Shown: positions 10,191 to 63,959 of the stretch, in pieces
How positions within the stretch are numbered: the stretch's first letter is position 1
Layout: each line of letters opens with the position of its first letter
Virus genome (UHGV): UHGV-1353888
Length of the DNA stretch: 64,000 nucleotides
Origin: a virus
Direction: 5' to 3' (one strand)
Translations under genes and position numbers: made by a program
The notes under the pieces: model-generated
What the model was told of the DNA's origin: nothing
What the model saw: only the letters and a program-made list of their open reading frames with translations
Database searches by the model: none

Positions 10191-10220
10191 CCCCGTCTAG
10201 TAGGCGGGGTTTCTTTTTTG
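10191..10220 (+). terminator. rho-independent terminator
   Basis: GCCCCG ... CGGGGT stem followed by TTTCTTTTTT. Confidence 0.55.
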
Positions 10221-10265
10221 TATGACACAACACAATATTGATAGAATCTATTTCTATGGTATAAC
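10220..10265 (+). promoter_or_regulatory. promoter: GTATGACACAAC box, -35-like TTGATA (10238-10243), 16-nt spacer, -10-like TATAAC (10260-10265)
   Basis: Same architecture as eight other sites in the window. The CTATGGTATAAC block is identical to the promoter at 56775. Confidence 0.45.
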
Positions 10266-10275
10266 TCAACAAGAC

Positions 10276-11121
10276 ATGGCCATTTCAAAAGCTGAACAAC
10301 GAAAGAAAGAACGGATAGCCAAGAGCAAGGCCCGAAGGAACCGTGGCATAAAAAAACATGATGTAGACAAGAGTGACCTTCGACCCCGGAATTTTCAGGA
10401 GCTTATGTACAAGTGGCTCCCCGCTACCCTTGAATTTAATTACAGGGGAGAAGACTTTGATGTATATGATTACTACGCCGCAGGAACAAGCGGAGGTGGA
10501 CAGAACCACCTTGCTATCGGTTCTACAAATGGGGCATTAGAAATCATTGGGTACACCAAGTTCCCAAGTACCCCCTATGCAGTAAGATGTGTATGTGGTC
10601 GAGTAATGAAGCTGAATATTAAGGACTTCAACGAACACCCCCACTGTGGGTGTTTTTTCCGTGCTGTCCGAACAGCCTACCTGATTCGCACCCGCATTGA
10701 AGCAGTTCGCTCCTGGCTGAATAATGTGGGAGACTGGTTACTTGACCTTGAAGTTATCGAGGATTATATGGTAGACTTCATTGATAAGTCCCGAGGTCTG
10801 GACCAAAGGAAAACCCCCTATGTGAGAAAGTCCCCCGCTGAACCATTCATCAATTTACTTCACGGGAAAACTGACCCAATGCCGCAGGAATTTCTTGATT
10901 TCTTCCTGCTCATTTCTACGACGAAAAGCTATAAAAAGCTCCTTACAGAACTCGTTGATAAGAACAGCGAATACCCTTTGTGGGAAGCTATTCCTCTTAG
11001 CGACATGTCCGAGTATGAGAGGGTGAGCAATTCCCTCCCGGAGTTTGATGCGGCAACCTTTATTAATCTTATCCACCATCTCAATGAAACAGAAGCTTCC
11101 AAGTTTACGGAGGGTAGTTAA
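10276..11121 (+). CDS. hypothetical protein with a basic N-terminus and a Cys/His cluster (CVCGRVMK...HPHCGC)
   Basis: The track ORF starts at 10222, inside the promoter box. The ATG at 10276 sits 10 nt after the -10, so 10276 is the preferred start. Confidence 0.55.
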   Translation: MAISKAEQRKKERIAKSKARRNRGIKKHDVDKSDLRPRNFQELMYKWLPATLEFNYRGEDFDVYDYYAAGTSGGGQNHLAIGSTNGALEIIGYTKFPSTPYAVRCVCGRVMKLNIKDFNEHPHCGCFFRAVRTAYLIRTRIEAVRSWLNNVGDWLLDLEVIEDYMVDFIDKSRGLDQRKTPYVRKSPAEPFINLLHGKTDPMPQEFLDFFLLISTTKSYKKLLTELVDKNSEYPLWEAIPLSDMSEYERVSNSLPEFDAATFINLIHHLNETEASKFTEGS

Positions 11122-26978: not shown

Positions 26979-27209
26979 ATGAATACTAAAGACCCAACGC
27001 GGGAGAAACGGTTCGTACATATCTTGGATGAATTCGTTGAAGTAGACCCCTACATTACTATCCGTTTAAACGTAGGTCCTCATAAAGGAGAACTAAGATA
27101 TGTCCCTAATCCAGATTATTTCCATGCTGAATATATCCAGGAGGGTAGGGAATACAAGAAGAGAAAGAAATACTTACCTAGACAAACCTCTAACCCAAAA
27201 ACGCTATAA
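26979..27209 (+). CDS. small basic protein, copy 2. Fused in frame to the duplicated MEKENKRKT start at 26952
   Basis: Identical to copy 1. 280 is not a multiple of 3, so the two copies sit in different phases. Confidence 0.45.
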   Translation: MNTKDPTREKRFVHILDEFVEVDPYITIRLNVGPHKGELRYVPNPDYFHAEYIQEGREYKKRKKYLPRQTSNPKTL

Positions 27210-27231
27210 CCTCTTAGAACTTATTAGAACC

Positions 27232-27687
27232 ATGGAAAAAGAAAACAAACAATATGTCGAAGCCATCACGAAAGAAATCCGTTATCCCTACGGTCCCGGT
27301 ATCCAGAAACTCGACGACGGGTCGTTCAAAATCACTGTATGTCGTTCTGAATGTAGGGCTGTTGCTAAGGCTGATAACCTTGAAGTGGCTAAGGCCATCC
27401 AAGACAAACTGAAAACTGATTCAGGATATTTCCTTTCTTGCGTATCTAGTATTCTCCACAAGGAGGTTACGAAGATTCGGAACCAGGATATTGAATCCAA
27501 GTCAGCCTCCATTATACGATTGGTCAATGAGATTATGGGACTTGTGGAAGAAGGGAGGATGCTATTTCAACAAGCTGTGTCCCAAGGCATTGAGGGAGAC
27601 GTTCTCACCCGAGCCTATTCGGGGCTTGCTGAGTTATATCCCGGGAATCCGGAAGTACCCCTTCTCCATCTAATCTCTGAGGATTAA
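27232..27687 (+). CDS. hypothetical protein (151 aa)
   Basis: MEKENKQYVEAITKE... The track ORF 27100-27687 extends upstream only through the duplicated segment. Confidence 0.5.
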   Translation: MEKENKQYVEAITKEIRYPYGPGIQKLDDGSFKITVCRSECRAVAKADNLEVAKAIQDKLKTDSGYFLSCVSSILHKEVTKIRNQDIESKSASIIRLVNEIMGLVEEGRMLFQQAVSQGIEGDVLTRAYSGLAELYPGNPEVPLLHLISED

Positions 27688-27724
27688 TCTTGTCATACCG
27701 TACTAAACGTACTACACTTTCGAT

Positions 27725-35721: not shown

Positions 35722-35763
35722 GACATATTTTCTTCTTGCAATAGTAAATATTCATGGTACAAA

Positions 35764-35801
35764 AAGGGCACAGTCTTTACGGGCTGTGTCCTTTTCTCTT
35801 T
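35764..35801 (+). terminator. rho-independent terminator: 12-bp stem with two G-U pairs, TTTAC loop, TTCTCTTT tail
   Basis: AAGGGCACAGTC TTTAC GGGCTGTGTCCTT. Confidence 0.5.
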
Positions 35802-35837
35802 ACAAGAGAGGGATTAACCAACATACTATACGCATCT

Positions 35838-47092: not shown

Positions 47093-47574
47093 TACTTTGA
47101 GGTGGGTAGAATTACTACTTTGAAAAGTTGAAGGTAGTGATGATAGGTGAAAAGGATTATGTCCATCCAGTCGTCATCCTCCTTGTTGTACAGGGTAATC
47201 CTACCATCAGGCTCAACCCGTATCACATCCAAGGTGTTCCCGCAAAGCTCCAGGGTTGGGGAAGGAACATTTTCGTATGTGCAAAACATAGACTTTGCGA
47301 ACCCGATGTCGAGTAAGGCCAGTCCCTCGTCGAAAGAAAGGGGAAGAGAAAGGATGGGGTCAATCGTCGTGCTGTGAATGTACCCATTAATATTTTCACT
47401 GCATCCCTCCTGGAGAAGTTTTTTCCTGCTAGAAAAGAACATAGCTGGGTGGAAGGACTTCCGTTCACAGGAGAATATCTTCTCGTGGTGGTTCTTGAAA
47501 ACCAGCTTGCTTGAATCCGTGGTCTCATACAAGGTGTATGGCTTGAGGATTGTTTCGATAATTGTGTCGCTCAT
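47092..47574 (-). CDS. hypothetical protein (160 aa), paralogue of 46402-46881
   Basis: CERKSFHPAMF. The track start 47679 lies inside the upstream terminator/promoter, so the ATG at 47574 is preferred (9 nt after the -10). Confidence 0.5.
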   Translation of the reverse strand: MSDTIIETILKPYTLYETTDSSKLVFKNHHEKIFSCERKSFHPAMFFSSRKKLLQEGCSENINGYIHSTTIDPILSLPLSFDEGLALLDIGFAKSMFCTYENVPSPTLELCGNTLDVIRVEPDGRITLYNKEDDDWMDIILFTYHHYLQLFKVVILPTSK

Positions 47575-47583
47575 TGTTACTGG

Positions 47584-47666
47584 ACTATAGCAGGGGAGAT
47601 TAAAATGTAAGGGGTCTCTTGTGTCATACAAAATAAAACCCCAGGAACGCGCCAACGTTCCTGGGG
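47584..47666 (-). promoter_or_regulatory. terminator hairpin (47639-47666, 11-bp stem), T tract, then promoter: box 47618-47629, -35 TTACAT (47605-47610), -10 TATAGT (47584-47589)
   Basis: Minus-strand reading: CCCCAGGAACG...CGTTCCTGGGG TTTTATTTT GTATGACACAAG AGACCCC TTACAT n15 TATAGT. Confidence 0.5.
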
Positions 47667-49659: not shown

Positions 49660-50019
49660 CTAATCATCATTCAATTCTTTTGTTATGATGTCAATGCTTG
49701 TTTTGCAGTCAGACAATAATACTTTCTTTTCATCAGCCATTTCCTTGGGAACCTGCGTACCCCGGACCTTGGCTTCGAGACTAGTAACCCTGTCGAGTAT
49801 GGAACGAAGGGATTTGATTGCCGCAGGAGTGTCCAGGTTGGCCTTCCACATTTGCTCAGTCTCTGCTATCTTAATGACATAGATGAACAGGTCAGACCGG
49901 AGGGTGTAGAAATACCGGGCTTGGTTGGCTTGGGATATTACTTCTTCAAGATGGTCCGCATGAAGGGGGCCAGAAAGAAGAATGGCTATAGCTGATATTA
50001 GTGGGGTTGGTTTCTTCAT
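49660..50019 (-). CDS. secreted/periplasmic protein (119 aa) with N-terminal signal peptide
   Basis: MKKPTPLISAIAILLSGPLHA. ATGA overlap with the upstream gene. Confidence 0.5.
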   Translation of the reverse strand: MKKPTPLISAIAILLSGPLHADHLEEVISQANQARYFYTLRSDLFIYVIKIAETEQMWKANLDTPAAIKSLRSILDRVTSLEAKVRGTQVPKEMADEKKVLLSDCKTSIDIITKELNDD

Positions 50020-50468
50020 TTTCGGTGTGCTTGTAAAATGGCTAGTTCGTGGGATTCAAAGTATGAGGTATTTACGTGGGAACATATTTCTCCATCAGTG
50101 ATTTCAGTCCATGCCAACTCATAACCGCGGGCCTTGTCGAGAGCTTCTTCCATTGCTTCTTTGTCTTCCCCAAACTCACTGGGTTTATCTATGTATTCCT
50201 TTGAGTTTCGTATTATCTCAATGGCAGTCCATAAGGAATCAGTGATGGTAAAGTAACGAAGTTCCTGGTCGAAATCCATCTTTCCAAATCCGCTATAGAG
50301 AGCAACTACGTAGTTTCCTGGAAGTCCCGCGGCTCTGGTCAACAGGAAAGTAATCTTCGGTTCGCCTGGAATGGGGGCCTCTTCTACTTCCTGCTCCAGG
50401 CTGGGCTTAAACTGAATGTCTAGTTCAATCATCTTTGAGCAGTGGGGACACGGTATTTGATTTGTCAT
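50016..50468 (-). CDS. paralogue-family member with an N-terminal CPHC zinc-ribbon extension
   Basis: KITFLLTR...NYVVALY...FTITDSLWTAIEIIRN aligns to the family core. Confidence 0.5.
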   Translation of the reverse strand: MTNQIPCPHCSKMIELDIQFKPSLEQEVEEAPIPGEPKITFLLTRAAGLPGNYVVALYSGFGKMDFDQELRYFTITDSLWTAIEIIRNSKEYIDKPSEFGEDKEAMEEALDKARGYELAWTEITDGEICSHVNTSYFESHELAILQAHRK

Positions 50469-50827
50469 TGTGCTTCCTCCTTTTGTTTGAGTTCTTCCAG
50501 GAGAACCTCCTCATTGCCCACCTGTATATTTTGAGTGTTCAGGTTGATAATCTTCCTATGCCCATCACCTGTGTAATTTAGTTCAGCCAGATAGATGTCA
50601 TGTTCGAATAATTGCCATGCTCTTTTCCTCTTTTCATAGGTTCCAAAGATGTCACTAGGCCAGTTGCCTACATTCTCTCGGTCTTCAACAAGAGAGATAG
50701 CTTCCTCCAATGTATTCACAACCGTCAGGTATTCTAGTTTAATAATGCGGCCTACCTCTTTGTAGATGACTACACGGAAATAATTACCTGGGGTACGATA
50801 GATTGAAAATGTAAGTTGTGGGTTCAT
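50465..50827 (-). CDS. paralogue-family protein 1 (120 aa)
   Basis: LTFSIYRT..NYFRVVIYKE...VNTLEEAISLVEDR. ATGA coupling on both sides. Confidence 0.6.
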   Translation of the reverse strand: MNPQLTFSIYRTPGNYFRVVIYKEVGRIIKLEYLTVVNTLEEAISLVEDRENVGNWPSDIFGTYEKRKRAWQLFEHDIYLAELNYTGDGHRKIINLNTQNIQVGNEEVLLEELKQKEEAQ

Positions 50828-51183
50828 TTCTTGCTCAGTTCTCTCTTTTTGAATTCCATGAGAAGGTCAAACTCTTTTTCATCCATAAGGTTTACGGCGA
50901 TGTTATAGACTACTCCCCGGCCAGCGTAGATGCAAGCTTCCATGAGAAGTGCCGCGTCATCATTAGGTACATTCTTAAAGAAAATCCATCTGTCTTCATC
51001 ATCATCAAACCCATCGTCTGGTCGTTTCTTGTAGTTATTCCTGTCTTCCGCTACCTGGATAGCTTCCTCCAGTGTATCAACTACTTCAATATGTTTAGTA
51101 AGGAAAACCAGGGTGTCTTCTTTGAAAATACTTACCCTGAACTTGTTCTTTTTGGTTCGGTGAATTGAAAAAGTTAATATCAT
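50824..51183 (-). CDS. paralogue-family protein 2 (119 aa)
   Basis: LTFSIHRT..NKFRVSIFKED...HIEVVDTLEEAIQVAEDR...DGFDDDEDR. Confidence 0.6.
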   Translation of the reverse strand: MILTFSIHRTKKNKFRVSIFKEDTLVFLTKHIEVVDTLEEAIQVAEDRNNYKKRPDDGFDDDEDRWIFFKNVPNDDAALLMEACIYAGRGVVYNIAVNLMDEKEFDLLMEFKKRELSKK

Positions 51184-51536
51184 TTATTCTCTCCTTCCAT
51201 TTCGGCTTGACATTTCATAAGTAGGGAAAGCTCTTTCCGGTTTACATGGCTCTCGTATAGAGCGTATTGTATTTCTTTGTTGTGGTCTACATAGCATTCC
51301 AAGAGAGCACGGTCATACTCAGTGCGTCTCCAGAATTCACGTCTATCTTCATCCGTTTCAAAGCCGTCACTCAGTCGGTTCTTATAATGCTTCCTGTCCT
51401 TGGCCAAGGCGATAGCTTCCTCTAGCGTATCAACCACCTCAATGTGTTTGATGGCGAACGAGAGAGCGTCTTCTTTGAAAACAATGACCTTGAATTTATT
51501 ATCGTTGGTCCTATAGATTGTAAAAGTTAATTTCAT
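51180..51536 (-). CDS. paralogue-family protein 3 (118 aa)
   Basis: LTFTIYRT..NKFKVIVFKED...HIEVVDTLEEAIALAKDR...DGFETDEDR. Confidence 0.6.
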   Translation of the reverse strand: MKLTFTIYRTNDNKFKVIVFKEDALSFAIKHIEVVDTLEEAIALAKDRKHYKNRLSDGFETDEDRREFWRRTEYDRALLECYVDHNKEIQYALYESHVNRKELSLLMKCQAEMEGENK

Positions 51537-51868
51537 TTGTCTAGTAGGGTTTTAAGGAGGGAGTATTCATTAGAGTCAAGAAGGTAGTCACCGTAGATTT
51601 TATATTCTAAATCCCCTTCGTCATTAATCCAGGTTACTATTAGGGGTGGGTCTGTATTTGTCATCCAGAAACTATTTCGAGCAGGGTCCGTTTTGAATTT
51701 ATCATCAGGTTTCTTCTCCAAGCTATCCCATTCTTTCACCAGTTGAACAGCCTGTTTCAAGGTATCAAATTCATCAATGTATAGGGGGTAGGACTGATAC
51801 CTGTCTTCTTCGAAAATAATTACTCGGAAGTTGCCTTCATCAGTTCGTAATATATCGTAGGTTTTCAT
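51533..51868 (-). CDS. paralogue-family protein 4 (111 aa)
   Basis: YDILRT..GNFRVIIFEED...FDTLKQAVQLVKE. Confidence 0.55.
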   Translation of the reverse strand: MKTYDILRTDEGNFRVIIFEEDRYQSYPLYIDEFDTLKQAVQLVKEWDSLEKKPDDKFKTDPARNSFWMTNTDPPLIVTWINDEGDLEYKIYGDYLLDSNEYSLLKTLLDK

Positions 51869-52215
51869 TGGGGTAATTCTTTCTCTATAAATTCAATAAG
51901 CTTGGTAAGTTCGTCAGGGTCTACTCTAGACTGATACAGGTTACATGCAATTTGGTTGTCCGTATTCACATAAAATTCCAGAAGCTCCACATCTCTGAGT
52001 AAACTTCTCCATATGTCTTCCCTTTCATCATCAGATTCATAGCCATCATCCAGCAGGTCCCGATAATCTTCCCTGTGTCTGGCTATCCATAATGCTTCAT
52101 CCAAGGTATAGGTTGTTGCCATGTGCTTGACATAGAAGTTCCTACTATCTTCTTTGAAAATAAAAACCCGGAACCTATTGTTAGGGGTTCTATAAAGGGT
52201 GAATGTAATTTTCAT
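51865..52215 (-). CDS. paralogue-family protein 5 (116 aa)
   Basis: ITFTLYRT..NRFRVFIFKED...YTLDEALWIARHRE...DGYESDDER. Confidence 0.6.
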   Translation of the reverse strand: MKITFTLYRTPNNRFRVFIFKEDSRNFYVKHMATTYTLDEALWIARHREDYRDLLDDGYESDDEREDIWRSLLRDVELLEFYVNTDNQIACNLYQSRVDPDELTKLIEFIEKELPQ

Positions 52216-52550
52216 TTTAAAAAGGCATCTGCAATTTGTTTTCTTTGAGTGAGCTTAACCTCCCGAATAGTGAAGCCAAGTCTTTCCTTAAACGTATATA
52301 CCGTGGAATAGGCCATCTTGTTTTTGCAGGGATAATAAGTAAGAAGCGTTCCCATTCTTGAGACATTATCAAAGCCGTCACTCGGCCACTCCTTGTAAGT
52401 ATCCCTACCCTTAATGAGCGAGATGGCCTCCTCGAACGAATCCATATACTGGACGAGATGGACACAGTTTCGATGGGTAGCCGTCTCTTCGAACAAGAAA
52501 ATACTATAGTACGAATCGTCCATTTCGTACAGTTCAAACGTTATGTGCAT
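52212..52550 (-). CDS. paralogue-family protein 6 (112 aa), most divergent
   Basis: ITFELYEMDDSYYSIFLFEE...MDSFEEAISLIKGR...DGFD. Confidence 0.55.
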   Translation of the reverse strand: MHITFELYEMDDSYYSIFLFEETATHRNCVHLVQYMDSFEEAISLIKGRDTYKEWPSDGFDNVSRMGTLLTYYPCKNKMAYSTVYTFKERLGFTIREVKLTQRKQIADAFLK

Positions 52551-55029: not shown

Positions 55030-55312
55030 AATTTTTATTGAGTAGGCTATAAAGTTCTGTCCAGGTTTTTACTTCGTTGATAAGTTCCTTTTTGAAGAAG
55101 GCAACCCTTGCATAGGTTGGAGTGGCGATTAAGACCGCCATGCGGTGAGGTGAATGAAAAAGCCGTCTCTGAAATGTGGGGAAGAGTTCTTCCCTGTTAA
55201 TGTGATAAAGCTCCACATAGACCACGGGAAAGGCATTGGAGATTTGTTTTTCTCTGCTCTCCTTCTTCCGGAACCCTATGCTTTCAAGCTCTAAAATGTA
55301 GCCGTCAATCAT
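55019..55312 (-). CDS. hypothetical protein (97 aa)
   Basis: ATG ORF. Confidence 0.45.
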   Translation of the reverse strand: MIDGYILELESIGFRKKESREKQISNAFPVVYVELYHINREELFPTFQRRLFHSPHRMAVLIATPTYARVAFFKKELINEVKTWTELYSLLNKNYDK

Positions 55313-55986
55313 TTTGCAAAGAAGTTAGACGTTGACCGGATATAGGGGCGGGTATAGTGCAGTCTCATGCTAGGGTAAACTTCCTTTTCCAATACGTCTT
55401 CCAACTCATAAGAGCTTTTCAAAACTTTCTGAATAAGGACTTTGGCTTTTTCTACCGCTTTAGAATGGTTCTTGAAAGCTTCTTCAATCTTGACAAGCTC
55501 ACTATTCACGAAGTTTATGCACTTGTCCAGTTCCGTTTTAAAGTTAGGGTTAAGCCGTCCATTTTGAGAAGTGGTAATACCCTCCAGAACATACCGTTCA
55601 TAACGGGAACTCCATGTGTCTTCCCCGTAAATATCCTTAACTCCGGTAGGGAGCATGACGCGCAGGGAAATAGCGGGGAAGAAGGTGCGTGAAGAATAGT
55701 TGTCTACGCTTCCCGGAGCAAGGACGCTTGCCCCTCTAACATAATCATCTCCTCGGAAGTGCCTATTGAGAATATGACTAACATTACTCCAATCCTTTTC
55801 CCTCATAACCTTAAATTCGCCTGACTTTGTTTTAAAATCTGGACTGTCAAAAACGACTTTGAGATATTCAAGTGCATCCTTAAGCCGTTCATAGAAATAT
55901 TGAAGTCCTTTCAAGTCACGCATGGCATTATCATCTTCTTCAACGAATTTCCGAATAAAGTAGTTCATCATATCATTATTATTCAT
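55309..55986 (-). CDS. hypothetical protein (225 aa)
   Basis: ATG ORF with the conserved leader ATAGAAAGACAAAAAGAAATG. Confidence 0.5.
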   Translation of the reverse strand: MNNNDMMNYFIRKFVEEDDNAMRDLKGLQYFYERLKDALEYLKVVFDSPDFKTKSGEFKVMREKDWSNVSHILNRHFRGDDYVRGASVLAPGSVDNYSSRTFFPAISLRVMLPTGVKDIYGEDTWSSRYERYVLEGITTSQNGRLNPNFKTELDKCINFVNSELVKIEEAFKNHSKAVEKAKVLIQKVLKSSYELEDVLEKEVYPSMRLHYTRPYIRSTSNFFAK

Positions 55987-56018
55987 TTCTTTTTGTCTTT
56001 CTATTTTTGTTTGTAGTT

Positions 56019-56711
56019 TTAGAGATTGTAGAATTTAATATATTCTTCCCTGCTTTTAAATGTCCTCACCTTCCCCCCGTGACCGTTGTATACGATTGTT
56101 TCAATTCCTTCGCCATTCGAACGGTTGTCATAAACATGAATAGTAGAGCCGTCTTTTAAAGTAAAAGCCGTAGCAATTCCCTTATACTTAGGGTTTTTAC
56201 GGGAGACTACACTGCGTGCGAGGTTGTAATTAGTATACACACGCCCCATTTTTTGAGGCCACGGGTATGGGGTGCTATCCAGGCTCATAAACACAAGGTC
56301 CATGCCGTTAGGATAGGAAAAGAAGTCCCATTTTTCCGGAGCTAGTTCGGCATCCCATTTGACTAGGTGAGTTAGCGAAAATTGGAACTGTGCATAGAAC
56401 GGAACCAAATCCTCAAAGGCGAAAAGGAAACGTGCTCCCTGCTCAATAGCGTACTTAACCATTTTTTTACCAAATCCTTTCCCCCGGAATAGGTGAGAGA
56501 CTATGAGGGAAACAAGTTCCCCCTCCGCGGTTATCGAAAATACTCCGACGATGGAGCCGTCATTTACTAGCCTGAAACACTTGCATCCATTATCCCTGTA
56601 CCAGTCACCGGGGTAAACGTCAACATGTGCTTTCTCCATGTCTGACAGATAATGGCGCAGTTCCCCTGCAAGGCTCTCCATTGCATAAGGATTTATCTTT
56701 TCAATATACAT
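56019..56711 (-). CDS. GNAT-family N-acetyltransferase domain fused to a ~120-aa C-terminal domain of unknown function
   Basis: GNAT motif A VGVFSITAEGELVSLIVSHLFRGKGFGKKMVKYA. Conserved leader AAATAGAAAGACAAAAGAAAATG. Confidence 0.6.
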   Translation of the reverse strand: MYIEKINPYAMESLAGELRHYLSDMEKAHVDVYPGDWYRDNGCKCFRLVNDGSIVGVFSITAEGELVSLIVSHLFRGKGFGKKMVKYAIEQGARFLFAFEDLVPFYAQFQFSLTHLVKWDAELAPEKWDFFSYPNGMDLVFMSLDSTPYPWPQKMGRVYTNYNLARSVVSRKNPKYKGIATAFTLKDGSTIHVYDNRSNGEGIETIVYNGHGGKVRTFKSREEYIKFYNL

Positions 56712-56774
56712 TTTCTTTTGTCTTTCTATTTGTTGTGCCGGACGTTTTGGCCTCCGGCTCGCCTTACATGAACA

Positions 56775-56830
56775 GTTATACCATAGGAGCGGGGAAAAAC
56801 AAGACTAATCTTTTTTGTCTTGTGTCATAC
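56775..56830 (-). promoter_or_regulatory. promoter: box 56819-56830, -35 TTGTTT (56797-56802), 16-nt spacer, -10 TATAAC (56775-56780)
   Basis: Minus-strand reading: GTATGACACAAG n16 TTGTTT n16 TATAAC. The leader carries a GCCGGAGGCC...GGCACAAC hairpin. Confidence 0.45.
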
Positions 56831-57644
56831 ACCAATTAAACGCCGCTTTACCTTGTTCAGAAATGGCCCATGGACTAAAAGAACGGTGGACAATACGGGG
56901 GCGGGTAACCACTTCTGCTAGAATACATCCATCTTCTTCCGTGCTTTTATCACAATTGCATGGCATAGGGGTTCCCTTGCATTCTCCTCCCCTGTTTTTA
57001 CGAATATGGCTCTCATAATCCATTGTTAGTAGCAATTCCTTTAACTCTTTCATGGCCTTATAATTATGGAAAGGGTAAGCCATTCGCAAAGAGGTAGAGC
57101 TAAAATTCTCTGACTCTAAATAGATTGTGAGATAAAACTCCTTATTCTCCGTGTTTTCCGTAACGTGTGCAGTATACACGGCTTCCTCACCCTCCAAAAT
57201 GTTCACAACGTCAGCCTCATACTCAATATATTGAGTTTCATGGAGTTCTTCCGTTTTTGCAGGTTGTTTCGGAGCGTCCTTAACGGGCGTAGCGTACACA
57301 TCAACCGTTGCACAGGGGAGGCCAAAACAGGGATATTGATTAAAAGAATCCTCCGTTCCCTCAATTTCGACAATTACCTTCCATTCAGCGCGGAAATCGT
57401 CAAGTTCAGCGCGGTCTTCCTCGCTAAGTTCGCCTTCATCATCTCCATACCCCATTAAATAAGGGAATGCCCATTGAGGAACGCCCTCAACCCTTTCGTA
57501 ACTGTCTGACGTTTCGTCCATTTCGGTCAATACAAGATAGGTACTTCCGCAATGGGGGCATAGTCCGTTTAGAGGCGTAACGCTTCGGTTATCGCATTCC
57601 ATGCAGTCATATTTTTCGTTTTCGTCGATAATAACAGTGCTCAT
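56805..57644 (-). CDS. acidic Cys-rich protein (279 aa)
   Basis: CMECDN...CPHCGS N-terminus and PCNCDKS C-terminus. Conserved leader. Confidence 0.5.
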   Translation of the reverse strand: MSTVIIDENEKYDCMECDNRSVTPLNGLCPHCGSTYLVLTEMDETSDSYERVEGVPQWAFPYLMGYGDDEGELSEEDRAELDDFRAEWKVIVEIEGTEDSFNQYPCFGLPCATVDVYATPVKDAPKQPAKTEELHETQYIEYEADVVNILEGEEAVYTAHVTENTENKEFYLTIYLESENFSSTSLRMAYPFHNYKAMKELKELLLTMDYESHIRKNRGGECKGTPMPCNCDKSTEEDGCILAEVVTRPRIVHRSFSPWAISEQGKAAFNWCMTQDKKD

Positions 57645-57804
57645 TTTTCTATGTTTTCTATTTTAGTTTGTTGGTTGGTTGCGGGGTTGTGTTCCCCTTA
57701 CGCAATCCTTTATATTATATTAGAGGGGAAACGCAAGGGAAATGTTCATGCCTTGTGTCATACTTAACTGTTAAGGAGTTATGAAAATGTTCCACGTGGA
57801 ACAT
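57645..57804 (-). promoter_or_regulatory. repeat element A: promoter (box 57752-57763, -35 TTGCGT, -10 TATAAA 57709-57714), CTTAACTGTTAAG palindrome, 20-nt palindrome AATGTTCCACGTGGAACATT
   Basis: About 85% identical to elements B, C and D. Confidence 0.5.
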
Positions 57805-57805
57805 T

Positions 57806-58375
57806 TCAGGCGATTACAGTCTTTTTGACGGATAAGGTCAAATGATAGCAGGGGGAAAAGGTTTCAGAACTTATGTCATAGGAGCAGGTGGCCCGCAACT
57901 CTTCATGTTCTGCTTCAACCATTTCCGCTAGTTCGTTAGGCGAACAATCCAGAACAGGGGTGTACGCCTCAATCTTGGTGAGGAAAAAATTGGCTTTAAT
58001 TTCTTTTATCTTCCCTCCATTCTTTTTAACAAGGTCTTCAACGGTGGCCAGAGCGGCGGTTAAAATTTCCTTTCGTTTGTCCTGCAAAATAGTAATGATT
58101 GCAAGGTCTTTTCCGTCAATGTTTTGGATGCGGGAACAGACAAGAAAACCTTGTTTATGCAGAGCATTAAGAGCTTTATCTCTCTTGTCCACCGGAACGG
58201 CAATGCGTCGAATGTTGTGCTCTACCTGCTTCTCCGTTGCTGATTGCAGGTCATAAACCTTACAACCTAAACCGTTTAGAGATTGCAAGATAATTTTTGA
58301 TAATAAATCTTTAGGCATCTTTTTTAATAAGCCATGTTGTTTCAGTAGTTTCCCGGTCAAATCCAATGCTTGCAT
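57806..58375 (-). CDS. hypothetical protein (189 aa; alternative ATG at 58318)
   Basis: ATG ORF. Overlaps the ORF at 58311-58544. Confidence 0.5.
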   Translation of the reverse strand: MQALDLTGKLLKQHGLLKKMPKDLLSKIILQSLNGLGCKVYDLQSATEKQVEHNIRRIAVPVDKRDKALNALHKQGFLVCSRIQNIDGKDLAIITILQDKRKEILTAALATVEDLVKKNGGKIKEIKANFFLTKIEAYTPVLDCSPNELAEMVEAEHEELRATCSYDISSETFSPCYHLTLSVKKTVIA

Positions 58376-58544
58376 AGGACGGCCCTACAAAGTCACTGAC
58401 TTCACGGACGATTTTAACGTCTGGACCTGCTTTAGCTAAAACCCTTAATAGCAAGTTCTTTCCGGGTTTAAAAGAGAGTTCTACTTTTTCAACCTCTTCC
58501 CGGTTGTTCAAATGACTTAATGCTTCAAATAATTTCTTGTTCAT
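58311..58544 (-). CDS. hypothetical small protein (77 aa)
   Basis: ATG ORF. Confidence 0.4.
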   Translation of the reverse strand: MNKKLFEALSHLNNREEVEKVELSFKPGKNLLLRVLAKAGPDVKIVREVSDFVGPSYASIGFDRETTETTWLIKKDA

Positions 58545-58549
58545 GTTTT

Positions 58550-58966
58550 TTATACGTTAAAGTTAAAGGATTTTTGAACATTTCTACCCTGTACAGTTAC
58601 AGAGGTGAGGGCATACATTTTATACTGCAACATGTACGTGTTTTGTTCGGATTTTAAGGCCTGAATTTTGGAATCATACTTGTTTGTATTGTCAATCGCA
58701 ATCTCTACCATGATACAATATGCAAACCACAATAGAGTTAAAGCACTTGCATAAACTCCAACAATACAAAAAAGTTCTGTTATGCTAGTCCCATTGTAAA
58801 TTTTTATTGCTAAAATAACCACAAGAATAAAGGCAAGCCATGCGGAAATTCTTTCAAAGTTCAATCCATCCAAGGCCCTATATATTCCCCTCCACCTTTT
58901 AAATGAGCGGGTGAGTTCCGAAATCTCACGGGCGTGAACAAAGCTAGCGTAAAAAGCGTATTTCAT
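58550..58966 (-). CDS. membrane protein (138 aa, 2-3 TM)
   Basis: WLAFILVVILAIKIY and LFCIVGVYASALTLLWFAYCIMV. Confidence 0.5.
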   Translation of the reverse strand: MKYAFYASFVHAREISELTRSFKRWRGIYRALDGLNFERISAWLAFILVVILAIKIYNGTSITELFCIVGVYASALTLLWFAYCIMVEIAIDNTNKYDSKIQALKSEQNTYMLQYKMYALTSVTVQGRNVQKSFNFNV

Positions 58967-58971
58967 AAATG

Positions 58972-59172
58972 TTAGAAGTTAAGGGATGATACAAAACGCT
59001 TCATTTCGGCGATTGAGGCACATTCAAAAGTTAATGCCGGGTTCCAGTTTGAGCGGAAAACATAGCCATCTTCCTTTTTCTGGACATAGGCGAACGTAGA
59101 AATTAGCTCTTCCCGGTCATTCACAAAACTATTCTTCAACCTATCTAATGCTTCCATATCTGTTTTATTCAT
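58972..59172 (-). CDS. hypothetical small protein (66 aa)
   Basis: Conserved leader AATTAGAAAGACATAAGAAAATG. Confidence 0.45.
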   Translation of the reverse strand: MNKTDMEALDRLKNSFVNDREELISTFAYVQKKEDGYVFRSNWNPALTFECASIAEMKRFVSSLNF

Positions 59173-59290
59173 TTTCTTATGTCTTTCTAATTTTTGTTGT
59201 TATTACGGGGTTGTGTCTCCCTTACGCATTTCTTTATACCATTTTTGAGAGAGGATGCAAGGAGAAATGTTGAAACCTTGTGTCATACAG
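59173..59290 (-). promoter_or_regulatory. repeat element C: promoter (box 59277-59288, -35 TTGCAT, 16-nt spacer, extended -10 TGGTATAAA)
   Basis: Conserved blocks CCCTTACGCA and CTTTATA, as in elements A, B and D. Confidence 0.5.
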
Positions 59291-59492
59291 AAGATTGTGG
59301 TTCTTTCGGAACCGTTATCATGCCATACTTTTCAGGGTTGTAAAAGTCCTGCCAAGTGAGATACTCCTTGCTTTTACAATTGGGGCAAGTCTCCTCATTA
59401 AGGGGTACAAGTCCTTTCCATCCGCAACCATTGCACACAACGCAATCACCTAAGCCGAAATAAGTTGTAAATTCCATGGTGATTAAAGACAT
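59283..59492 (-). CDS. small zinc-ribbon protein (69 aa)
   Basis: CVVCNGCGW...CPNCKS. Confidence 0.45.
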   Translation of the reverse strand: MSLITMEFTTYFGLGDCVVCNGCGWKGLVPLNEETCPNCKSKEYLTWQDFYNPEKYGMITVPKEPQSSV

Positions 59493-59749
59493 TCGATTAC
59501 ATGGTCACTTTCCGGAATGCGGAGAATGGGAACAGGGGAATCATCCAAATTTTCAATGTCATACTCTTCCAAAAAATCTTTAATGGGGTATTCTAAAAAC
59601 ATGAGTTTTATGTCCATTAGGGATAACGCTTCTCCCTGCATTTCTTCAATATATTCAAAAATAACTTTGGCCCCCATAGGGGAAAAATCACAACCCGCTT
59701 GAACTAAATAATTATGAAATGGTTGATAGCTATTTATTTTTAAATTCAT
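59483..59749 (-). CDS. hypothetical small protein (88 aa)
   Basis: ATG ORF. Confidence 0.45.
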   Translation of the reverse strand: MNLKINSYQPFHNYLVQAGCDFSPMGAKVIFEYIEEMQGEALSLMDIKLMFLEYPIKDFLEEYDIENLDDSPVPILRIPESDHVIECL

Positions 59750-59767
59750 TATTTTAGGTCTTTCTAA

Positions 59768-60097
59768 TTATTTTTTATTTTTCAGTCTCATTTTATATCC
59801 TTTCAAAACAAGCTTTTCAAGTGGTCCAGATATGATATAATAATTTCTATTTTCATCATTAATTCCGGAGTGAAAAATATAGTTCCCGGATTGGCCATTC
59901 TTCACTAGTTCTTCCTCAAAAGCTCTAAGAATTAGAAGAGTATACCTGTTTTTATCTTCGGCAATCTTCCTAGCGTTAAAACCTGTAACGGCGTTCCAAT
60001 CTTCCCACTCTACAATATGCCCTTTAAGGTATACAGGCTTTAAATTTAACTTGCTTGCACGGATAATGCCAGATGGCGTTTTTATAGTTGTTTTCAT
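59768..60097 (-). CDS. hypothetical protein (109 aa)
   Basis: Conserved leader and ATG. Confidence 0.5.
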   Translation of the reverse strand: MKTTIKTPSGIIRASKLNLKPVYLKGHIVEWEDWNAVTGFNARKIAEDKNRYTLLILRAFEEELVKNGQSGNYIFHSGINDENRNYYIISGPLEKLVLKGYKMRLKNKK

Positions 60098-60207
60098 TTT
60101 TCTATTTTATGTTGGAGAAATGCCCCTTACGCAATCCTTTATATAATATTAGAGGGATTATGCAAGGAAAATGTTCATGGCTTGTGTCATACTTAACTGT
60201 TAAGGAG
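60098..60207 (-). promoter_or_regulatory. repeat element B: promoter (box 60181-60192, -35 TTGCAT 60160-60165, -10 TATAAA 60138-60143), CTTAACTGTTAAG palindrome
   Basis: Near-identical to element A across about 100 bp. Confidence 0.5.
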
Positions 60208-60546
60208 TTATGAAGAAATATATGATTCCAGCATGCGGGGGTGCGTGGTAAATTTCAGCTCTCTCCCTTCATAAATGATAAAGCCTTTTATGGTGCTGTC
60301 CTGATTCATCCTTCTTTTTAACTCCACAACTAGCTCAAAAAGAACGGTATGCCCACATAAACACCACGCTAGCAGGGGGTGAGTTACAAAATCGCCCGCC
60401 TCATTTTGAGTAACCGGGCAGATACGTATAATATCTCTGTCATCATTTTCATCATATAAGTCCCAGAACATAAATGTGTTATCATACACAACACATTCCT
60501 GAAAAATGTCTCTCAATTCCTGCAAATATTCACTCACTTCTTTCAT
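60208..60546 (-). CDS. hypothetical protein (112 aa)
   Basis: ATG ORF. Confidence 0.5.
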   Translation of the reverse strand: MKEVSEYLQELRDIFQECVVYDNTFMFWDLYDENDDRDIIRICPVTQNEAGDFVTHPLLAWCLCGHTVLFELVVELKRRMNQDSTIKGFIIYEGRELKFTTHPRMLESYISS

Positions 60547-60560
60547 TTTCGTATTCCTTT

Positions 60561-60872
60561 CTAAGCCATAAACTTACATAATTCCCGCTCATTTACTCTC
60601 ACAACACTATAACCATAACGGGAGGCCATTAGTTCCACGCCATTTTGATGATTCCGTGTCGTCAAAGAGTATTTTTCATCGCTAAGGTATACTATTTTAG
60701 TACAGTCATCCTTGTAAGCGATTGGCGTTAGATAGCTATACAGGACGGATTCTGAAAAACTAAGGCGAATAACGGTGCCGTAAGTGTAACTGGATTCACA
60801 TTTAGGAGATTTTCCTTCCTGCTTTTCTCCGTCAAAATACTTTTTCAAAAGGTCTTCAATGTATTTTCTCAT
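60561..60872 (-). CDS. hypothetical protein (103 aa)
   Basis: ATG ORF. Confidence 0.5.
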   Translation of the reverse strand: MRKYIEDLLKKYFDGEKQEGKSPKCESSYTYGTVIRLSFSESVLYSYLTPIAYKDDCTKIVYLSDEKYSLTTRNHQNGVELMASRYGYSVVRVNERELCKFMA

Positions 60873-60924
60873 TTTTCTTTAAGATTGCGGACGGGAGAAC
60901 CATTATCTCCCGCCCTAATTGTTA

Positions 60925-61318
60925 TTAACCAAGATAAGCTTCTTTTCCAGCGGCCCCCATTTCGGAATAATTAATGTCACGCCAAAGACCATGATTAGGT
61001 TGCACGTAGGTTTCATCTATGACATTGCAAGTTCTGAACAATTTGGAGTCTTCGTAACCAATGTCCATGTTTTCTTTGTTAAACCTAAGCACGATTCCTT
61101 CCCAATTTGTAAAATCTTCCAAATCCTCAATGCAATCCTTAATATCGAAGGGTTGAACATCAAAACAAATACCCCGGATAAGCGCGGAATTTTCATCCTC
61201 CGTGTAAATCGCAATATGCAACCTCCCCCCCGCTATTATCTTCGTAAACCCTGTAGGTATATGCTCCTTTGCACAATTCATCAAGGATAATCACTTCATC
61301 ATTCATTTCTTTGTTCAT
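60925..61318 (-). CDS. gene interrupted at a G7 homopolymer (C7 on the plus strand at 61226-61232): the 61318 frame (42 codons) and the 61284 frame (119 codons) would fuse with a 1-nt slip
   Basis: The conserved leader GGCACAACAACTAATAAAAATATACAATATCATG and promoter E sit in front of 61318. Removing one G gives ...YEDNSGG-RLHIAIYTEDENS... Confidence 0.4.
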
Positions 61319-61372
61319 GATATTGTATATTTTTATTAGTTGTTGTGCCCCCTTCTTGGGAGAACAAGGTCA

Positions 61373-61426
61373 ATTTAGCATAGGGCACATGTTATGCAAG
61401 AAAAAACTTCATCATTTTTGTCATAC
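61373..61426 (-). promoter_or_regulatory. promoter E: variant box GTATGACAAAAA (61415-61426), -35 TTGCAT (61394-61399), 15-nt spacer, -10 TAAATT
   Basis: Same architecture with a degenerate box. Confidence 0.35.
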
Positions 61427-61431
61427 TAGCT

Positions 61432-61704
61432 TTAGTGTTGCACGTCCCTTACTTCGTAATAACGGGGTAAAACAATGACTTGTGAGGTTTCTTTCTTAAA
61501 GTCCATGTAACAGGGGTTCAATCTGTCTAAATTATCTCCTAAATCAATATTCTCAATGAGTTGACAGAGATTATCCCAATTTATAATACCGTGAGTAAAT
61601 CCTAAAAACGTTCTCTTTCCCTCCTTAGAGTCATAAACGGCAAGCAAAAAACTTCCTTCCGTTCTGTTTTCAAAAATTTGATACTCCTTTTCTGCTTTTT
61701 TCAT
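61432..61704 (-). CDS. hypothetical protein (90 aa)
   Basis: Leader AAATTAGAAATACATAAGAAAATG. Confidence 0.5.
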   Translation of the reverse strand: MKKAEKEYQIFENRTEGSFLLAVYDSKEGKRTFLGFTHGIINWDNLCQLIENIDLGDNLDRLNPCYMDFKKETSQVIVLPRYYEVRDVQH

Positions 61705-61741
61705 TTTCTTATGTATTTCTAATTTAATCTGTTATAAATAT

Positions 61742-61987
61742 TCAGGGCCTAATCTCTTCGTGAGTTTTATACACGGCCCGCCATGAAGATGAAGAAGCGT
61801 CATAAATCACAAACCCAGAATAGCCGGACTTGTTAAGGGTATTTCTTCTTTTCAATTCTTCCCATGCGTCCATTTTAAGGCGAGATAAAGTGTGTCGTCC
61901 ATCATCATAATAAGAGTCTGTACTTCCGCAAATAGGCATGATTCTTCCAGATAAATCTGGCTTGCAAAATGTAATTACTGGCTTCAT
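61742..61987 (-). CDS. hypothetical protein (81 aa)
   Basis: ATG ORF. Confidence 0.45.
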   Translation of the reverse strand: MKPVITFCKPDLSGRIMPICGSTDSYYDDGRHTLSRLKMDAWEELKRRNTLNKSGYSGFVIYDASSSSWRAVYKTHEEIRP

Positions 61988-62009
61988 TTTATTATTATTA
62001 TTTAAGGGT

Positions 62010-62315
62010 TTATACTAAGTCGATAGCGCGTAAAAACAAACGCTTGTCATGGTCAAAATAGGTCCACCCGTACTTTCCGGGGTTATATCCGATTACTTTC
62101 CGGTTCCCGTGTATCTGGTGAGGCATCCATTCGACACTGATATTTTCCTCCCCTACCCCGTGGATGACGGCATGAGTTCCTTCCTCCATCAATTCCCGGA
62201 GGGTTCCGAAACGGACAAAACTGCGGGCAACTTGGTAGTGTGTATGACCTTCCTTTTTGCAATACTCTTCTGCAAACTTATGCAGGCCCTTGCTTGGTTT
62301 TTGTATGATTATCAT
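62010..62315 (-). CDS. hypothetical protein (101 aa)
   Basis: The track start 62345 is TTG. The ATG at 62315 follows the leader GGAAAGACATAAAACATG. Confidence 0.5.
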   Translation of the reverse strand: MIIIQKPSKGLHKFAEEYCKKEGHTHYQVARSFVRFGTLRELMEEGTHAVIHGVGEENISVEWMPHQIHGNRKVIGYNPGKYGWTYFDHDKRLFLRAIDLV

Positions 62316-62334
62316 TGTTTTATGTCTTTCCAGT

Positions 62335-62556
62335 TTATTTTCCAAGGGATATTTTAGTAAGGGCCTCCCTCATTTTCTCCATGCTAGCGGCGTATATAAA
62401 ATGACGCACAAGGGGAGTTGCATCCGTGCGGGTTGCAAGATAACCTAACCCTGTTTTATCAATCCAATAAGGCACTGATTCCAGAGTTATCCTTGCCCCT
62501 TCTGCCCCTAATTTTTCCAGCTCCAATAGTGCTTTTAAATCGTTGGATGTTAACAT
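62335..62556 (-). CDS. hypothetical small protein (73 aa)
   Basis: The track start 62622 lies inside promoter element D. The ATG at 62556 follows the leader AATAGAAAGATACAAGAAAATG. Confidence 0.45.
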   Translation of the reverse strand: MLTSNDLKALLELEKLGAEGARITLESVPYWIDKTGLGYLATRTDATPLVRHFIYAASMEKMREALTKISLGK

Positions 62557-62700
62557 TTTCTTGTATCTTTCTATTTTAGTTCGTTGCTTGGTTGGTTGTA
62601 GGGTTGTGTTCCCCTTACGCATTCTTTATAGCATCTTTGAGCAGGGGAGCAAGCTTTTTCTTTTAGGCTTGTGTCATACAAAATTGTCCCACGTGGAACT
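62557..62700 (-). promoter_or_regulatory. repeat element D: promoter (box 62668-62679, -35 TTGCTC, 16-nt spacer, extended -10 TGCTATAAA 62625-62633) plus CCACGTGG hairpin
   Basis: Conserved blocks shared with elements A, B and C. Confidence 0.5.
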
Positions 62701-63391: not shown

Positions 63392-63580
63392 TCACTTGTC
63401 AATCCCTTTCCTGCTTTTAATCCCTTTCAATTTCTCTCCTAATTCTTTAAGCCGCGCTTCCTCTTCCGTAAGCTTTCGATTTCCCTGCTTAATCCCTCGG
63501 TTTATGCGCCTAAAATCCTCGGAGAGTTTATCCAGTTTCCGCCTCAACTCTATAAACTGTTCGGTACTGTTAATTGCCAT
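63392..63580 (-). CDS. small coiled-coil protein (62 aa)
   Basis: ATG ORF. Charged heptad-like sequence. Confidence 0.4.
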   Translation of the reverse strand: MAINSTEQFIELRRKLDKLSEDFRRINRGIKQGNRKLTEEEARLKELGEKLKGIKSRKGIDK

Positions 63581-63959
63581 GTCTCCTTTATATAGTAGGC
63601 ACGCCGTTTTTCAAGCTTTTTGTGCGCCATTTCCCCGCTTTTCAAGCTTTTTACAGTGTACCGCAATTGTTGCGTTAGCCCTAAAAACTGCACCATTACT
63701 GTTACTTCTGGCTTTCTTTGGACTTTCTCCCGAAAATCGTCGCACAGAAAGGGGCCTAAAAGGGCCTTTTGAGCAGGGAGCCTTACTATTATACCCGGCG
63801 ATTTTGCCCGCCCGTATACGCAAACCTCATGCGTTTTATTTTCGCCAATTCCGCACTTTTCGCCCTAAACGTACTAAGTGCACCTAAAATGGTACATAAA
63901 TCCTCCATTCGTAACGGAAAGAGTACTATTCACTTTTTATACAACTGTATACATTCTAG

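Follow-up and report, generated by a model that had tools for sequence, protein, structure and literature searches.

The minus-strand arm of the virus genome UHGV-1353888, of which one stretch of 64,000 nucleotides (nt) was analysed (the window in what follows), contains a family of repeated intergenic elements that probably act as composite start cassettes, each initiating both the transcription and the translation of a short minus-strand operon of small genes. In this reading, which we consider likely as a whole on the basis of sequence comparison, a cassette would combine a promoter for a host sigma-70-family RNA polymerase with an upstream 12-base-pair (bp) box, a hairpin at the 5' end of the mRNA and a translation leader, and would in addition be used for recombination. 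An original prediction, made from the letters of the sequence, had already proposed composite promoter-plus-leader units for the minus-strand genes. The sequence blocks that it quoted are all present where it placed them, and a repeat search recovers the families with counts far above chance. The composite units themselves are borne out by an architecture and spacing that are invariant in all relatives, by TTG and -10 elements that are unchanged in four orthologous pairs, and by consensus cassettes of the same layout in a sister clade.

Of a phage genome of roughly 69 kb, about 64 kb lie in the window; IMGVR_UViG_3300045988_146009, a relative of 68,815 bp, is 97-98% identical over most of the region. 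The phage group is uncultured, with genomes of about 69-73 kb that are almost without annotated genes. Genes for a family A DNA polymerase, a helicase and a terminase lie on the plus strand, as do structural genes and an open reading frame (ORF) of 3284 amino acids (aa). The minus arm, from about 63.6 kb down to 46.4 kb, holds some 35 small genes with almost no family matches (one GNAT, one DUF6926, one DUF3310 and one HNH). The genes behind the cassettes encode products of 41-279 aa, almost none of which has a family match, and they form a variable region, gene content differing between genomes that are otherwise 97-98% identical. Relatives were found by means of the DUF6926 protein and a pattern scan of metagenome contigs, and are treated here as a window clade (the window, L001, L008 and L003/L004) and a sister clade with genomes of about 70 kb (L005-7, L129, L130 and L132-139).

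Layout and conservation of the cassettes

Six full cassettes (D, E, B, C, A and F), each of 100-125 bp, head operons of small genes on the minus strand. On that strand the order of parts is GTATGACACAAG (the box), 15 or 16 nt, TTG, exactly 19 nt that usually end in TGn, a hexamer TATAAA, TAAATT or TATAAC, a G/C hairpin, a C/A-rich stretch, the leader AAATAGAAAGACAnAAGAAA and ATG. Transcription starts were placed about 7 nt past the -10 hexamer, which gives predicted 5' untranslated regions (UTRs) of 34-62 nt.

62554..62679, minus strand: cassette D; box 62668-62679, A-tract, TTG 62650-62652, TGC and TATAAA 62625-62630, predicted start about 62618, hairpin 62600-62615, leader, ATG 62556
61316..61426, minus strand: cassette E; box variant GTATGACAAAAA 61415-61426, T-tract, TTG 61397-61399, TGC and TAAATT 61372-61377, predicted start about 61365, hairpin 61346-61366, ATG 61318
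60095..60192, minus strand: cassette B; box 60181-60192, TTG 60163-60165, TATAAA 60138-60143, predicted start about 60131, weak hairpin 60114-60126, shortened leader, ATG 60097
59170..59288, minus strand: cassette C; box 59277-59288, 16-nt spacer, TTG 59258-59260, TGG and TATAAA 59233-59238, predicted start about 59226, hairpin 59207-59221, leader, ATG 59172
57642..57763, minus strand: cassette A; box 57752-57763, TTG 57734-57736, TATAAA 57709-57714, predicted start about 57702, hairpin GGGGAACACAACCCC 57683-57697, leader, ATG 57644
56709..56830, minus strand: cassette F; box 56819-56830 within the last codons of the DUF6926 gene, A-tract, TTG 56800-56802, TGG and TATAAC 56775-56780, predicted start about 56768, hairpin 56737-56758, leader, ATG 56711

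The window contains six instances of the pattern of box, 15 or 16 nt, TTG, 19 nt and TA, whereas 200 Markov simulations gave a mean of 0.005; the block CCCTTACGCAWTYCTTTATA has three matches against 0.03 expected by chance. The family had been described as four near-identical elements (A-D) with a degenerate fifth, E. The shared blocks are real, but E and F are full cassettes too, and near-identity is confined to A and B (92 nt at 92% in the repeat search); A, C, B and D have 48-60 nt in common at 71-85% identity, and the other cassettes share blocks. A/T tracts are present in D, E and F. The ACGCA(A/T) direct repeats that were also reported correspond, on the minus strand, to one TTGCGT at -33 and another at +1, and they form a true repeat only in A. 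Behind cassette E, a frameshift in a C7 tract (61225-61231) splits the gene into ORFs of 41 and 119 aa, of which the homologue in L005 is a single protein of 130 aa; the tract could be a sequencing error or phase-variable.

Comparison of relatives shows which parts are held constant. Both the 15/16-nt and the 19-nt spacing are kept in all 26 distinct elements, taken from the window, L001, L003/L004, L008, L005, L129, L130, L132, L133, L136, L138 and L139. Over the four orthologous pairs no differences occur in TTG (0 of 12 positions) or in the -10 hexamer (0 of 24), against 6 of 48 (12%) in the box, 28-33% in the spacers and 23-40% in the sequence beyond +1. Comparable elements are thus not lacking in close relatives: the copy number across the window clade is 3-6. 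Further afield, a stricter box pattern applied to metagenome contigs returned sister-clade phages and chance matches, and a scan of IMG/VR for the box followed at 15/16 nt by TTG gave only single chance matches among the matches listed. The INPHARED phage set contained no match to the region in a near-identity search and none to the terminase in a protein search.

The sister clade has its own cassette family, with four copies in about 5 kb, that lacks the box and reads AAAAAAGTA-TTGACA-N16-(TGC)TAYTAT, followed by a hairpin, a CA-rich leader and ACTAAAAATATG.

L005:7228, 9295, 10052 and 12340; L130:9925, 11764, 12522 and 14589: sister-clade cassettes, with two hairpin types

Judged by their motifs, these are consensus sigma-70-type extended -10 promoters in the same layout, which supports a promoter function for the cassettes of the window. 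Promoters with a box always have TTGC or TTGT and never TTGACA, and this includes the single box-type promoter of the sister clade, to which cassette E is orthologous. Given this division between box-bearing TTGC/TTGT and box-less TTGACA promoters, the cassettes are best read as host sigma-70-family promoters in which the box would compensate for a weak -35 element.

The upstream box and its spacing classes

The box GTATGACACAAG, which appears as CTTGTGTCATAC on the plus strand, has exactly six exact matches in the window, all in the form CTTGTGTCATAC on that strand; with up to two mismatches allowed, both strands together give 16 matches against 4.1 expected by chance. The box is not symmetric, and it is strand-specific: each of the six exact copies points towards the gene that it precedes, as does one of the two copies with a single mismatch. 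The original prediction had listed it merely as one conserved block among others; as a block it is real, and among the parts it is the prime candidate for binding a protein. The 5' hairpin was absent from that prediction. When the literature was searched for the 12-mer, only unrelated primers came up. The ATGACA inside the box was considered as a -35 element and rejected, as there is no -10 element at a suitable distance.

A second class of box promoters has a shorter spacing, in the order box, 6 nt, (T/C)T(G/T), 19 nt, TAnnnT, 6-10 nt and ATG, with four matches against 0.007 expected. Two of these, one on each arm of the genome, come immediately behind strong terminators.

47572..47629, minus strand: short-spacing box promoter; exact box, 6 nt, CTT, 19 nt, TGC and TATAGT, 9 nt, ATG 47574; located after a terminator hairpin of -22.9 kcal/mol
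10220..10278, plus strand: short-spacing box promoter on the other arm; GTATGACACAAC, 6 nt, TTG, 19 nt, TGG and TATAAC, 10 nt, ATG 10276; located after a terminator hairpin of -21.9 kcal/mol

The mRNA produced from the first of these would be nearly leaderless. The sister-clade homologue of the gene that starts at 10276 has TTG-19-TATTTT-6-ATG in front of it and no box, so the box appears to be an accessory to the core promoter rather than the promoter itself. The two box spacings are 9-10 bp apart, close to one turn of the helix; a protein site that has to face the polymerase would be expected to show such a difference.

Further box-type sequences were noticed. Past the right end of the window, on the other arm, L001:173 and L004:800 carry a box-type promoter, GTATGACAAAAA-15-TTG-20-TAGGGT, after two palindromes downstream of a VapE-like primase gene, which places the box on both genome arms. 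On the minus strand at 57870-57881, within the 3' end of gene 57806-58375 and about 120 nt upstream of cassette A, a box-like CTATGACATAAG is followed by CCCCCTGCTATCAT; this element resembles the promoter at 47629, is kept in L003 and L008, and may be an internal promoter. Antisense to the surrounding early genes, an intergenic gap (L005:12248, L129:11278, L138:87) holds another conserved promoter of the box type, GTATGACAAAAG-16-TTG-19-TATAGG; in L130 the gene for a 236-aa protein next to this site is inverted.

The first promoter of the minus arm has no box.

63578..63621, minus strand: box-less promoter; AAAAAGCTTGAAAA, then TATAAAGG, 6 nt, ATG 63580 (leaderless); a tandem copy of AAAAAGCTTGAAAA lies 31 nt upstream

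The first gene of this arm encodes a poorly conserved product of 62 aa. Box-less promoters that end 6 nt before ATG were seen as TATAAA-GGAGAC-ATG, TAGGGT-ATCGAC-ATG and TATTTT-CCTCGC-ATG (window 63578-63652, minus strand; L005 about 2625-2663; L150 about 9960-10003), an arrangement that suggests truly leaderless mRNAs.

With regard to the function of the box, it could be a protein-binding site for an activator or recruiter, or a distal UP-like element, that makes up for the weak -35 and is usable from two positions one helical turn apart, either 15/16 nt or 6 nt before TTG. Activator-dependent promoters with a weak -35 and a helically phased upstream site are well known, for example the class I and II promoters of CRP and the MotA-dependent middle promoters of T4. 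The present promoters resemble these in having a specific upstream site next to a sub-consensus -35, two spacings that are 9-10 bp apart, and box-less counterparts with TTGACA in the sister clade; they differ in that the box is asymmetric and matched no known site in the literature search. It is conceivable, although we would put it clearly below an even chance, that GTATGACACAAG is the site of an undescribed dedicated factor, encoded by the phage, delivered with the virion or supplied by the host, which, acting from two helically phased positions (at about -57 and -47), brings host RNA polymerase to promoters whose -35 is sub-consensus. If true, this would represent a phage-specific promoter code in an uncultured group whose hosts use translation that is independent of Shine-Dalgarno (SD) sequences, and the box code would largely have replaced, in the lineage of the window, the consensus TTGACA cassettes of the sister lineage.

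Hairpins, leaders and the polymerase

The 13 distinct predicted UTRs have a folded 5' end and an open 3' end. In 12 of them folding is better over the first 32 nt than in shuffled versions of the UTR in question (p 0.002-0.05 individually; a combined p is nominal only because the UTR sequences are related), and every one of the 13 has a minimum free energy of 0.0 over the last 28 nt. The hairpin position is taken by at least five unrelated sequences, among them GGGG...CCCC, with loops of 4-10 nt and no T-runs. The hairpin may protect the 5' end of the mRNA, attenuate read-through, or do both.

None of 62 gene starts is preceded by an SD sequence. Upstream of these starts G is depleted, and A peaks at -6 (61%) and at -13/-14 (55-58%). 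The consensus of the cassette leader has A at -3, -6, -12 and -13. A pairing of its AGAAAG with CUUUCU, which we take to be the 3' terminus of 16S rRNA ('half-SD'), was considered as well. It was rejected as unlikely, the whole 3' tail being bound on the platform in Bacteroidia ribosomes (PMC7797042). These ribosomes do not recognise SD sequences, and the determinants of initiation reported for Bacteroidia are A at -3, -6, -12 and -13 together with low structure (PMC7797042); the cassette leaders show the same combination, with no SD, A at the four positions and little structure, and the signals at the 62 gene starts agree as well. The leader has six matches against 0.00 expected. That the genes behind the elements share one leader without SD, as had been proposed, is correct with the exceptions that B has a shorter version (AAAATAGAAAAATG) and that 1 nt is deleted in the version of A. 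The additional copies predicted at 55986, 61704 and 62315 were found, together with one at 59749.

55984..56006, minus strand: leader-only copy AAATAGAAAGACAAAAAGAA-ATG before gene 55309-55986, no promoter
59747..59769, minus strand: leader-only copy AATTAGAAAGACCTAAAATA-ATG before gene 59483-59749, no promoter
61702..61724, minus strand: leader-only copy AATTAGAAATACATAAGAAA-ATG before gene 61432-61704, no promoter; one arm of the crossover between the window and L004
62313..62335, minus strand: weaker leader-only copy CTGGAAAGACATAAAACA-ATG before gene 62010-62315, no promoter

Taken in order, a cassette might work as follows. In some copies a terminator-like palindrome would close the upstream unit. 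The asymmetric box GTATGACACAAG at about -62 to -51 would come next, then an A/T-rich or CATGAACATTT stretch, a -35/-33 element cTTG(C/T) and, exactly 19 nt further on, a -10 element TA(T/A)A(A/T)N that usually has TGn before it. Transcription would start about 7 nt downstream, near (G/A)YGTAAGG, to give an mRNA with a short G/C hairpin at its 5' extremity, and a structure-free C/A-rich leader ending in AAATAGAAAGACAnAAGAAA-AUG, with A at -3/-6/-12/-13, would load ribosomes that ignore SD sequences.

Alternatively, box and hairpins could act mainly at the RNA level in read-through transcripts, as processing sites, attenuators or nut-like antitermination signals (linear GTAAGG plus hairpin) that control a few long early transcripts. 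Every cassette has a hairpin, and GTAAGG is conserved just before it in the A-D and F types; moreover, the stem-loops found in a comparable place in the PeSL cassettes of T4-type phages are terminators or attenuators (PMC2839356), and the lack of an obvious upstream terminator in some cassettes makes read-through likely. Nevertheless, the fixed distances from box to TTG (15/16 nt) and from TTG to TA (19 nt) in all lineages indicate a constraint on double-stranded DNA, whereas the absence of T-runs and of sequence conservation in the hairpins argues against one dedicated RNA-binding protein, and a search of 54-64 kb against Rfam found no family. As a replacement for promoters this idea is improbable, but an effect at the RNA level could be added to them.

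Another possibility is that the cassettes are promoters for a polymerase encoded by the phage or delivered with the virion (T7-like, hairpin-dependent as in N4, or of the crAss-like two-barrel type), which would recognise the -10 to +10 block TATAAAGnAnTGCGTAAGGGG or the G/C hairpin, with the TTG/TA likeness being incidental. A genome of about 69 kb with a 3284-aa protein encoded beside the structural genes recalls N4-like phages, TATAAAGRAWTGCGTAAGGGGA in A-D is superficially like T7/T3-type promoters that end in TA-GGGAGA, and a hairpin lies near the start region, as it does in N4 early promoters (PMC4496689). However, the -10 to +10 block is missing from E, F and the sister clade, although TTG-19-TA is invariant; the hairpins are heterogeneous in sequence, stem and loop length (4-10 nt), where N4 uses a specific hairpin with a 3-nt loop; and the sister-clade cassettes are consensus TTGACA/TGnTAYTAT promoters.

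The giant protein shows no polymerase signature. Its ORF (35754-45608) adjoins the structural genes and has homologues only within the phage group, with 49% identity to the sister clade. It contains no DxDGD/DFDxD (two-barrel) motif and no T7-like motifs, gave no match in PDB, Pfam, PHROGs or NCBIfam, and scored an hhalign probability below 1% against the N4 virion RNA polymerase and phi14:2 gp66. What is conserved is HELTHVLDNH (HExxH) near residue 1544, in a protein that an unreliable model predicts to be all-helical; it may be a polyvalent virion or ejection protein. No PF00940-type (T7-like polymerase) protein was found among the large ORFs, and searches with Pfam, PHROGs, NCBIfam, PDB and hhalign detected no other RNA polymerase gene in the phage. 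With no such gene found, reading by the host enzyme is the default, and the motifs lead us to infer that the cassettes are transcribed by the host sigma-70-family holoenzyme. We therefore hold a phage polymerase to be unlikely, somewhat more so than control at the RNA level.

Several observations weigh against the cassettes being host-read promoters aided by the box. For every functional step the argument is drawn from sequence. Structure prediction of the giant protein failed, which leaves some room for a phage enzyme: the AlphaFold model of residues 1301-2400 has a pLDDT (predicted local distance difference test) score of 39.6, too low to judge a very divergent virion polymerase. Searches of about 30 minus-arm (early) proteins revealed no sigma factor, activator or helix-turn-helix protein, and thus no candidate to bind the box. 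Two of the four short-spacing matches are doubtful, as the box at 25852 overlaps an ATGA stop/start overlap and that at 22186 lies in the stem of a terminator of -29 kcal/mol. The hairpin of B is not significant (p = 0.23), and an alignment of the UTRs yielded no common structure, the hairpins not being homologous, so that proof by covariation is not available. A terminase scan across bacterial and archaeal genomes, meant to assign the host, gave no match. The cassettes also fall below the threshold of an E. coli-type promoter scanner, with a -35 score of 3/6 and a -10 that lacks the final T. The canonical Bacteroidia promoter consists of a -33 TTTG and a -7 TAnnTTTG. A -33 TTG of this type, about 19 nt before TA, is found in every copy of the 15/16-nt class; the -10 regions, however, are TATAAAGG, TAAATTGA or TATAACTG and do not conform to the -7 motif, and the whole window has no TTG-N18-20-TAnnTTTG on a coding strand, which matters if the host belongs to the Bacteroidia. 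On the other hand, the mismatch to the Bacteroidia -7 motif and the sub-threshold E. coli-type score would fit a dependence on an extra contact.

Recombination, related systems and significance

Since the cassettes lie in direct repeat every 0.6-1.5 kb, they are substrates for homologous recombination, and that they provide such homology, as the original prediction held, is confirmed by alignment of relatives. L004 lacks window positions 61685-59200, with a crossover within the shared leader and first codons. L001 lacks the three genes between B and C and has, at L001:8066, a hybrid element that is B-like upstream and C-like downstream. Hairpin modules have been swapped between orthologous cassettes of L005 and L130. 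Two further junctions fall outside cassettes. As shown by this comparison of relatives, recombination at cassettes deletes, inserts and reshuffles the intervening small-gene units.

Repeats that are present in 3-6 copies between close relatives might also be selfish or passively spreading DNA (MITE-like or associated with homing endonucleases) without a regulatory role, the more so because an HNH endonuclease gene adjoins D and two adjoin the sister-clade box promoter. We give this very little credence: neither terminal inverted repeats nor target-site duplications are present, all copies are oriented with the genes that they precede and end precisely at the start codon, the promoter positions are the most conserved ones, and the variation is modular, with different hairpins at constant spacing.

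The perfect palindromes that had been described are present, but they are not general features of the family, CTTAACnGTTAAG being confined to A and B and GTTCCACGTGGAAC to A and D.

62686..62699, minus strand: palindrome GTTCCACGTGGGAC, then AATTTT; right after the stop codon of the HNH gene; terminator-like, -6.9 kcal/mol
57786..57805, minus strand: palindrome AATGTTCCACGTGGAACATT, then TTTC; right after the stop codon of gene 57806-58375; terminator-like, -11.0 kcal/mol; kept in L003, L004 and L008
60192..60204, no strand assigned: palindrome CTTAACTGTTAAG, between the stop codon of gene 60208-60546 and the B box, also in A at 57763-57775; RNA hairpin negligible, -0.9 kcal/mol

Separate terminator-like palindromes occur upstream of A and D only. 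With its position after a stop codon and the short T-run that follows, GTTCCACGTGGAAC looks like a weak terminator. A strong hairpin without T-run, GGGCGGGAGA-N7-TCTCCCGTCC (-19.8 kcal/mol), was noticed on the minus strand at 60880-60910; it lies shortly before gene 60561-60872, for which no promoter could be recognised.

On the plus strand, A and B contain the mini-ORFs that had been proposed as SD-led coding sequences, and both are led by TAAGGAGTT-ATG. They are better explained as mirror-image by-products of the end of a minus-strand gene, as TAAGGAGTTATGAA is the reverse complement of TTCATAACTCCTTA and, in B, TCA-TAA at this place is the last codon and stop of the upstream gene. That they encode the micro-peptides MKMFHVEHFRRLQSF and MKKYMIPACGGAW, or an upstream-ORF-type regulator, is hardly credible, because the genome makes no use of SD sequences anywhere, the two peptides are unrelated beyond the first two residues, and of the four homologous copies examined only that of the near-identical L008 keeps both SD and ATG, one or the other being lost from L001:9884, L001:8066 and L004:9879.

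Some other repeats were noted. A perfect tandem duplication of 280 nt at 26683-27242 (two copies, 100% identical) doubles the 5' end of gene 27100-27687 and is a recent event or an assembly artefact. About eight tandem paralogous genes for proteins of 111-150 aa, with a period of about 350 nt, occupy 49660-52550 on the minus strand, and relatives have this array too (L003 6397-9524). Near the divergent control region of the sister clade, L005 has at least eight tandem iteron-like copies of GTACTAAA(C/T) at about 1330-1430, with related single copies in the window at 27702-27720 and about 63868-63880; they may be replication-origin or protein-binding repeats.

The closest known design is that of the PeSL cassettes of T4-type phages, in which a stop codon, an A/T tract, -35/-10 elements, a stem-loop with a G-run and a C-run, a ribosome site and a start codon follow each other (PMC2839356; PMC4122927). 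The likeness covers repeated intergenic cassettes amid small genes of unknown function with the same order of parts, a stem-loop that lies downstream of the -10 in one PeSL subclass, as it does here, and recombination between copies that explains indels and replacements among close relatives. What the present sequences offer in this respect is a sigma-70-like -35/-10 with an A/T-rich upstream part, a stem-loop, a variable region of small genes and junctions within cassettes. The likeness is one of analogy and not of homology, since the phage group is unrelated and the sequences are non-homologous. Furthermore, PeSL cassettes have an SD sequence where here an A-rich leader is found, and the present ones have an extra 12-bp upstream box, a weak -35 and hairpins without T-runs, for which a terminator role is putative.

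Extended tripartite middle/late promoters with -35-like and -10-like blocks are known from the crAss-like phage phi14:2 and its relatives; in phi14:2 they are read by host polymerase, and in vitro by the E. coli enzyme too (bioRxiv 10.1101/2020.03.07.982082). Extended motifs, the absence of SD sequences before genes, a cTTG -35-like and a -10-like element with a third upstream block, and repetition before several operons are common to both systems. The motifs of phi14:2 are an A-tract, CTTGAC/CTTGCA and TAnnTTTG, whereas here GTATGACACAAG lies 1-2 helical turns further upstream and the -10 is TATAAA, TAAATT or TATAAC; thus the -35-like cTTGC is shared while the third and -10 blocks differ, and the cassettes do not belong to this tripartite type. 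The promoters of phi14:2 moreover belong to the middle class, and that phage has a virion RNA polymerase; no polymerase was detected here.

The early promoters of the N4 virion polymerase depend on hairpins with a 5-7 bp stem, a 3-nt loop and conserved bases at -11, -10 and -8 (PMC4496689). Small G/C hairpins near the starts, a phage of about 70 kb and a protein of more than 3000 aa are reminiscent of N4, but the hairpins here come after the -10 and vary in sequence and loop, a polymerase signature is missing from the giant protein, and the cassettes are not of the N4 type. Nor do they resemble T7-like promoters, which extend over about 23 bp (-17 to +6) in all copies and go with a polymerase gene, as the -10 to +10 block is conserved only in A-D.

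Early modules for host takeover, with numerous strong promoters, are known from the terminal redundancy of SPO1, promoters A1-A3 of T7 and the pre-early region of T5. The minus arm shares with these a dense series of promoters before short operons of small genes near a genome end and optimised translation starts; it differs in that the promoters of those modules are of host consensus without an extra box, and its own early class is suggested by position.

By analogy, then, the design is one known from T4-type phages, and what is new is the upstream box and the phage group in which it occurs. The cassettes do not overturn current understanding; the box provides a handle for finding a new transcription factor. 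In hosts that ignore SD sequences the cassettes could serve as expression parts (strong promoter, 5' hairpin and leader). For a barely annotated phage group, the analysis gives precise and testable predictions of promoters, start sites and leaders. It would also extend the PeSL idea beyond T4-type phages, to cassettes that drive early genes and serve as crossover points in a lineage with SD-independent translation.

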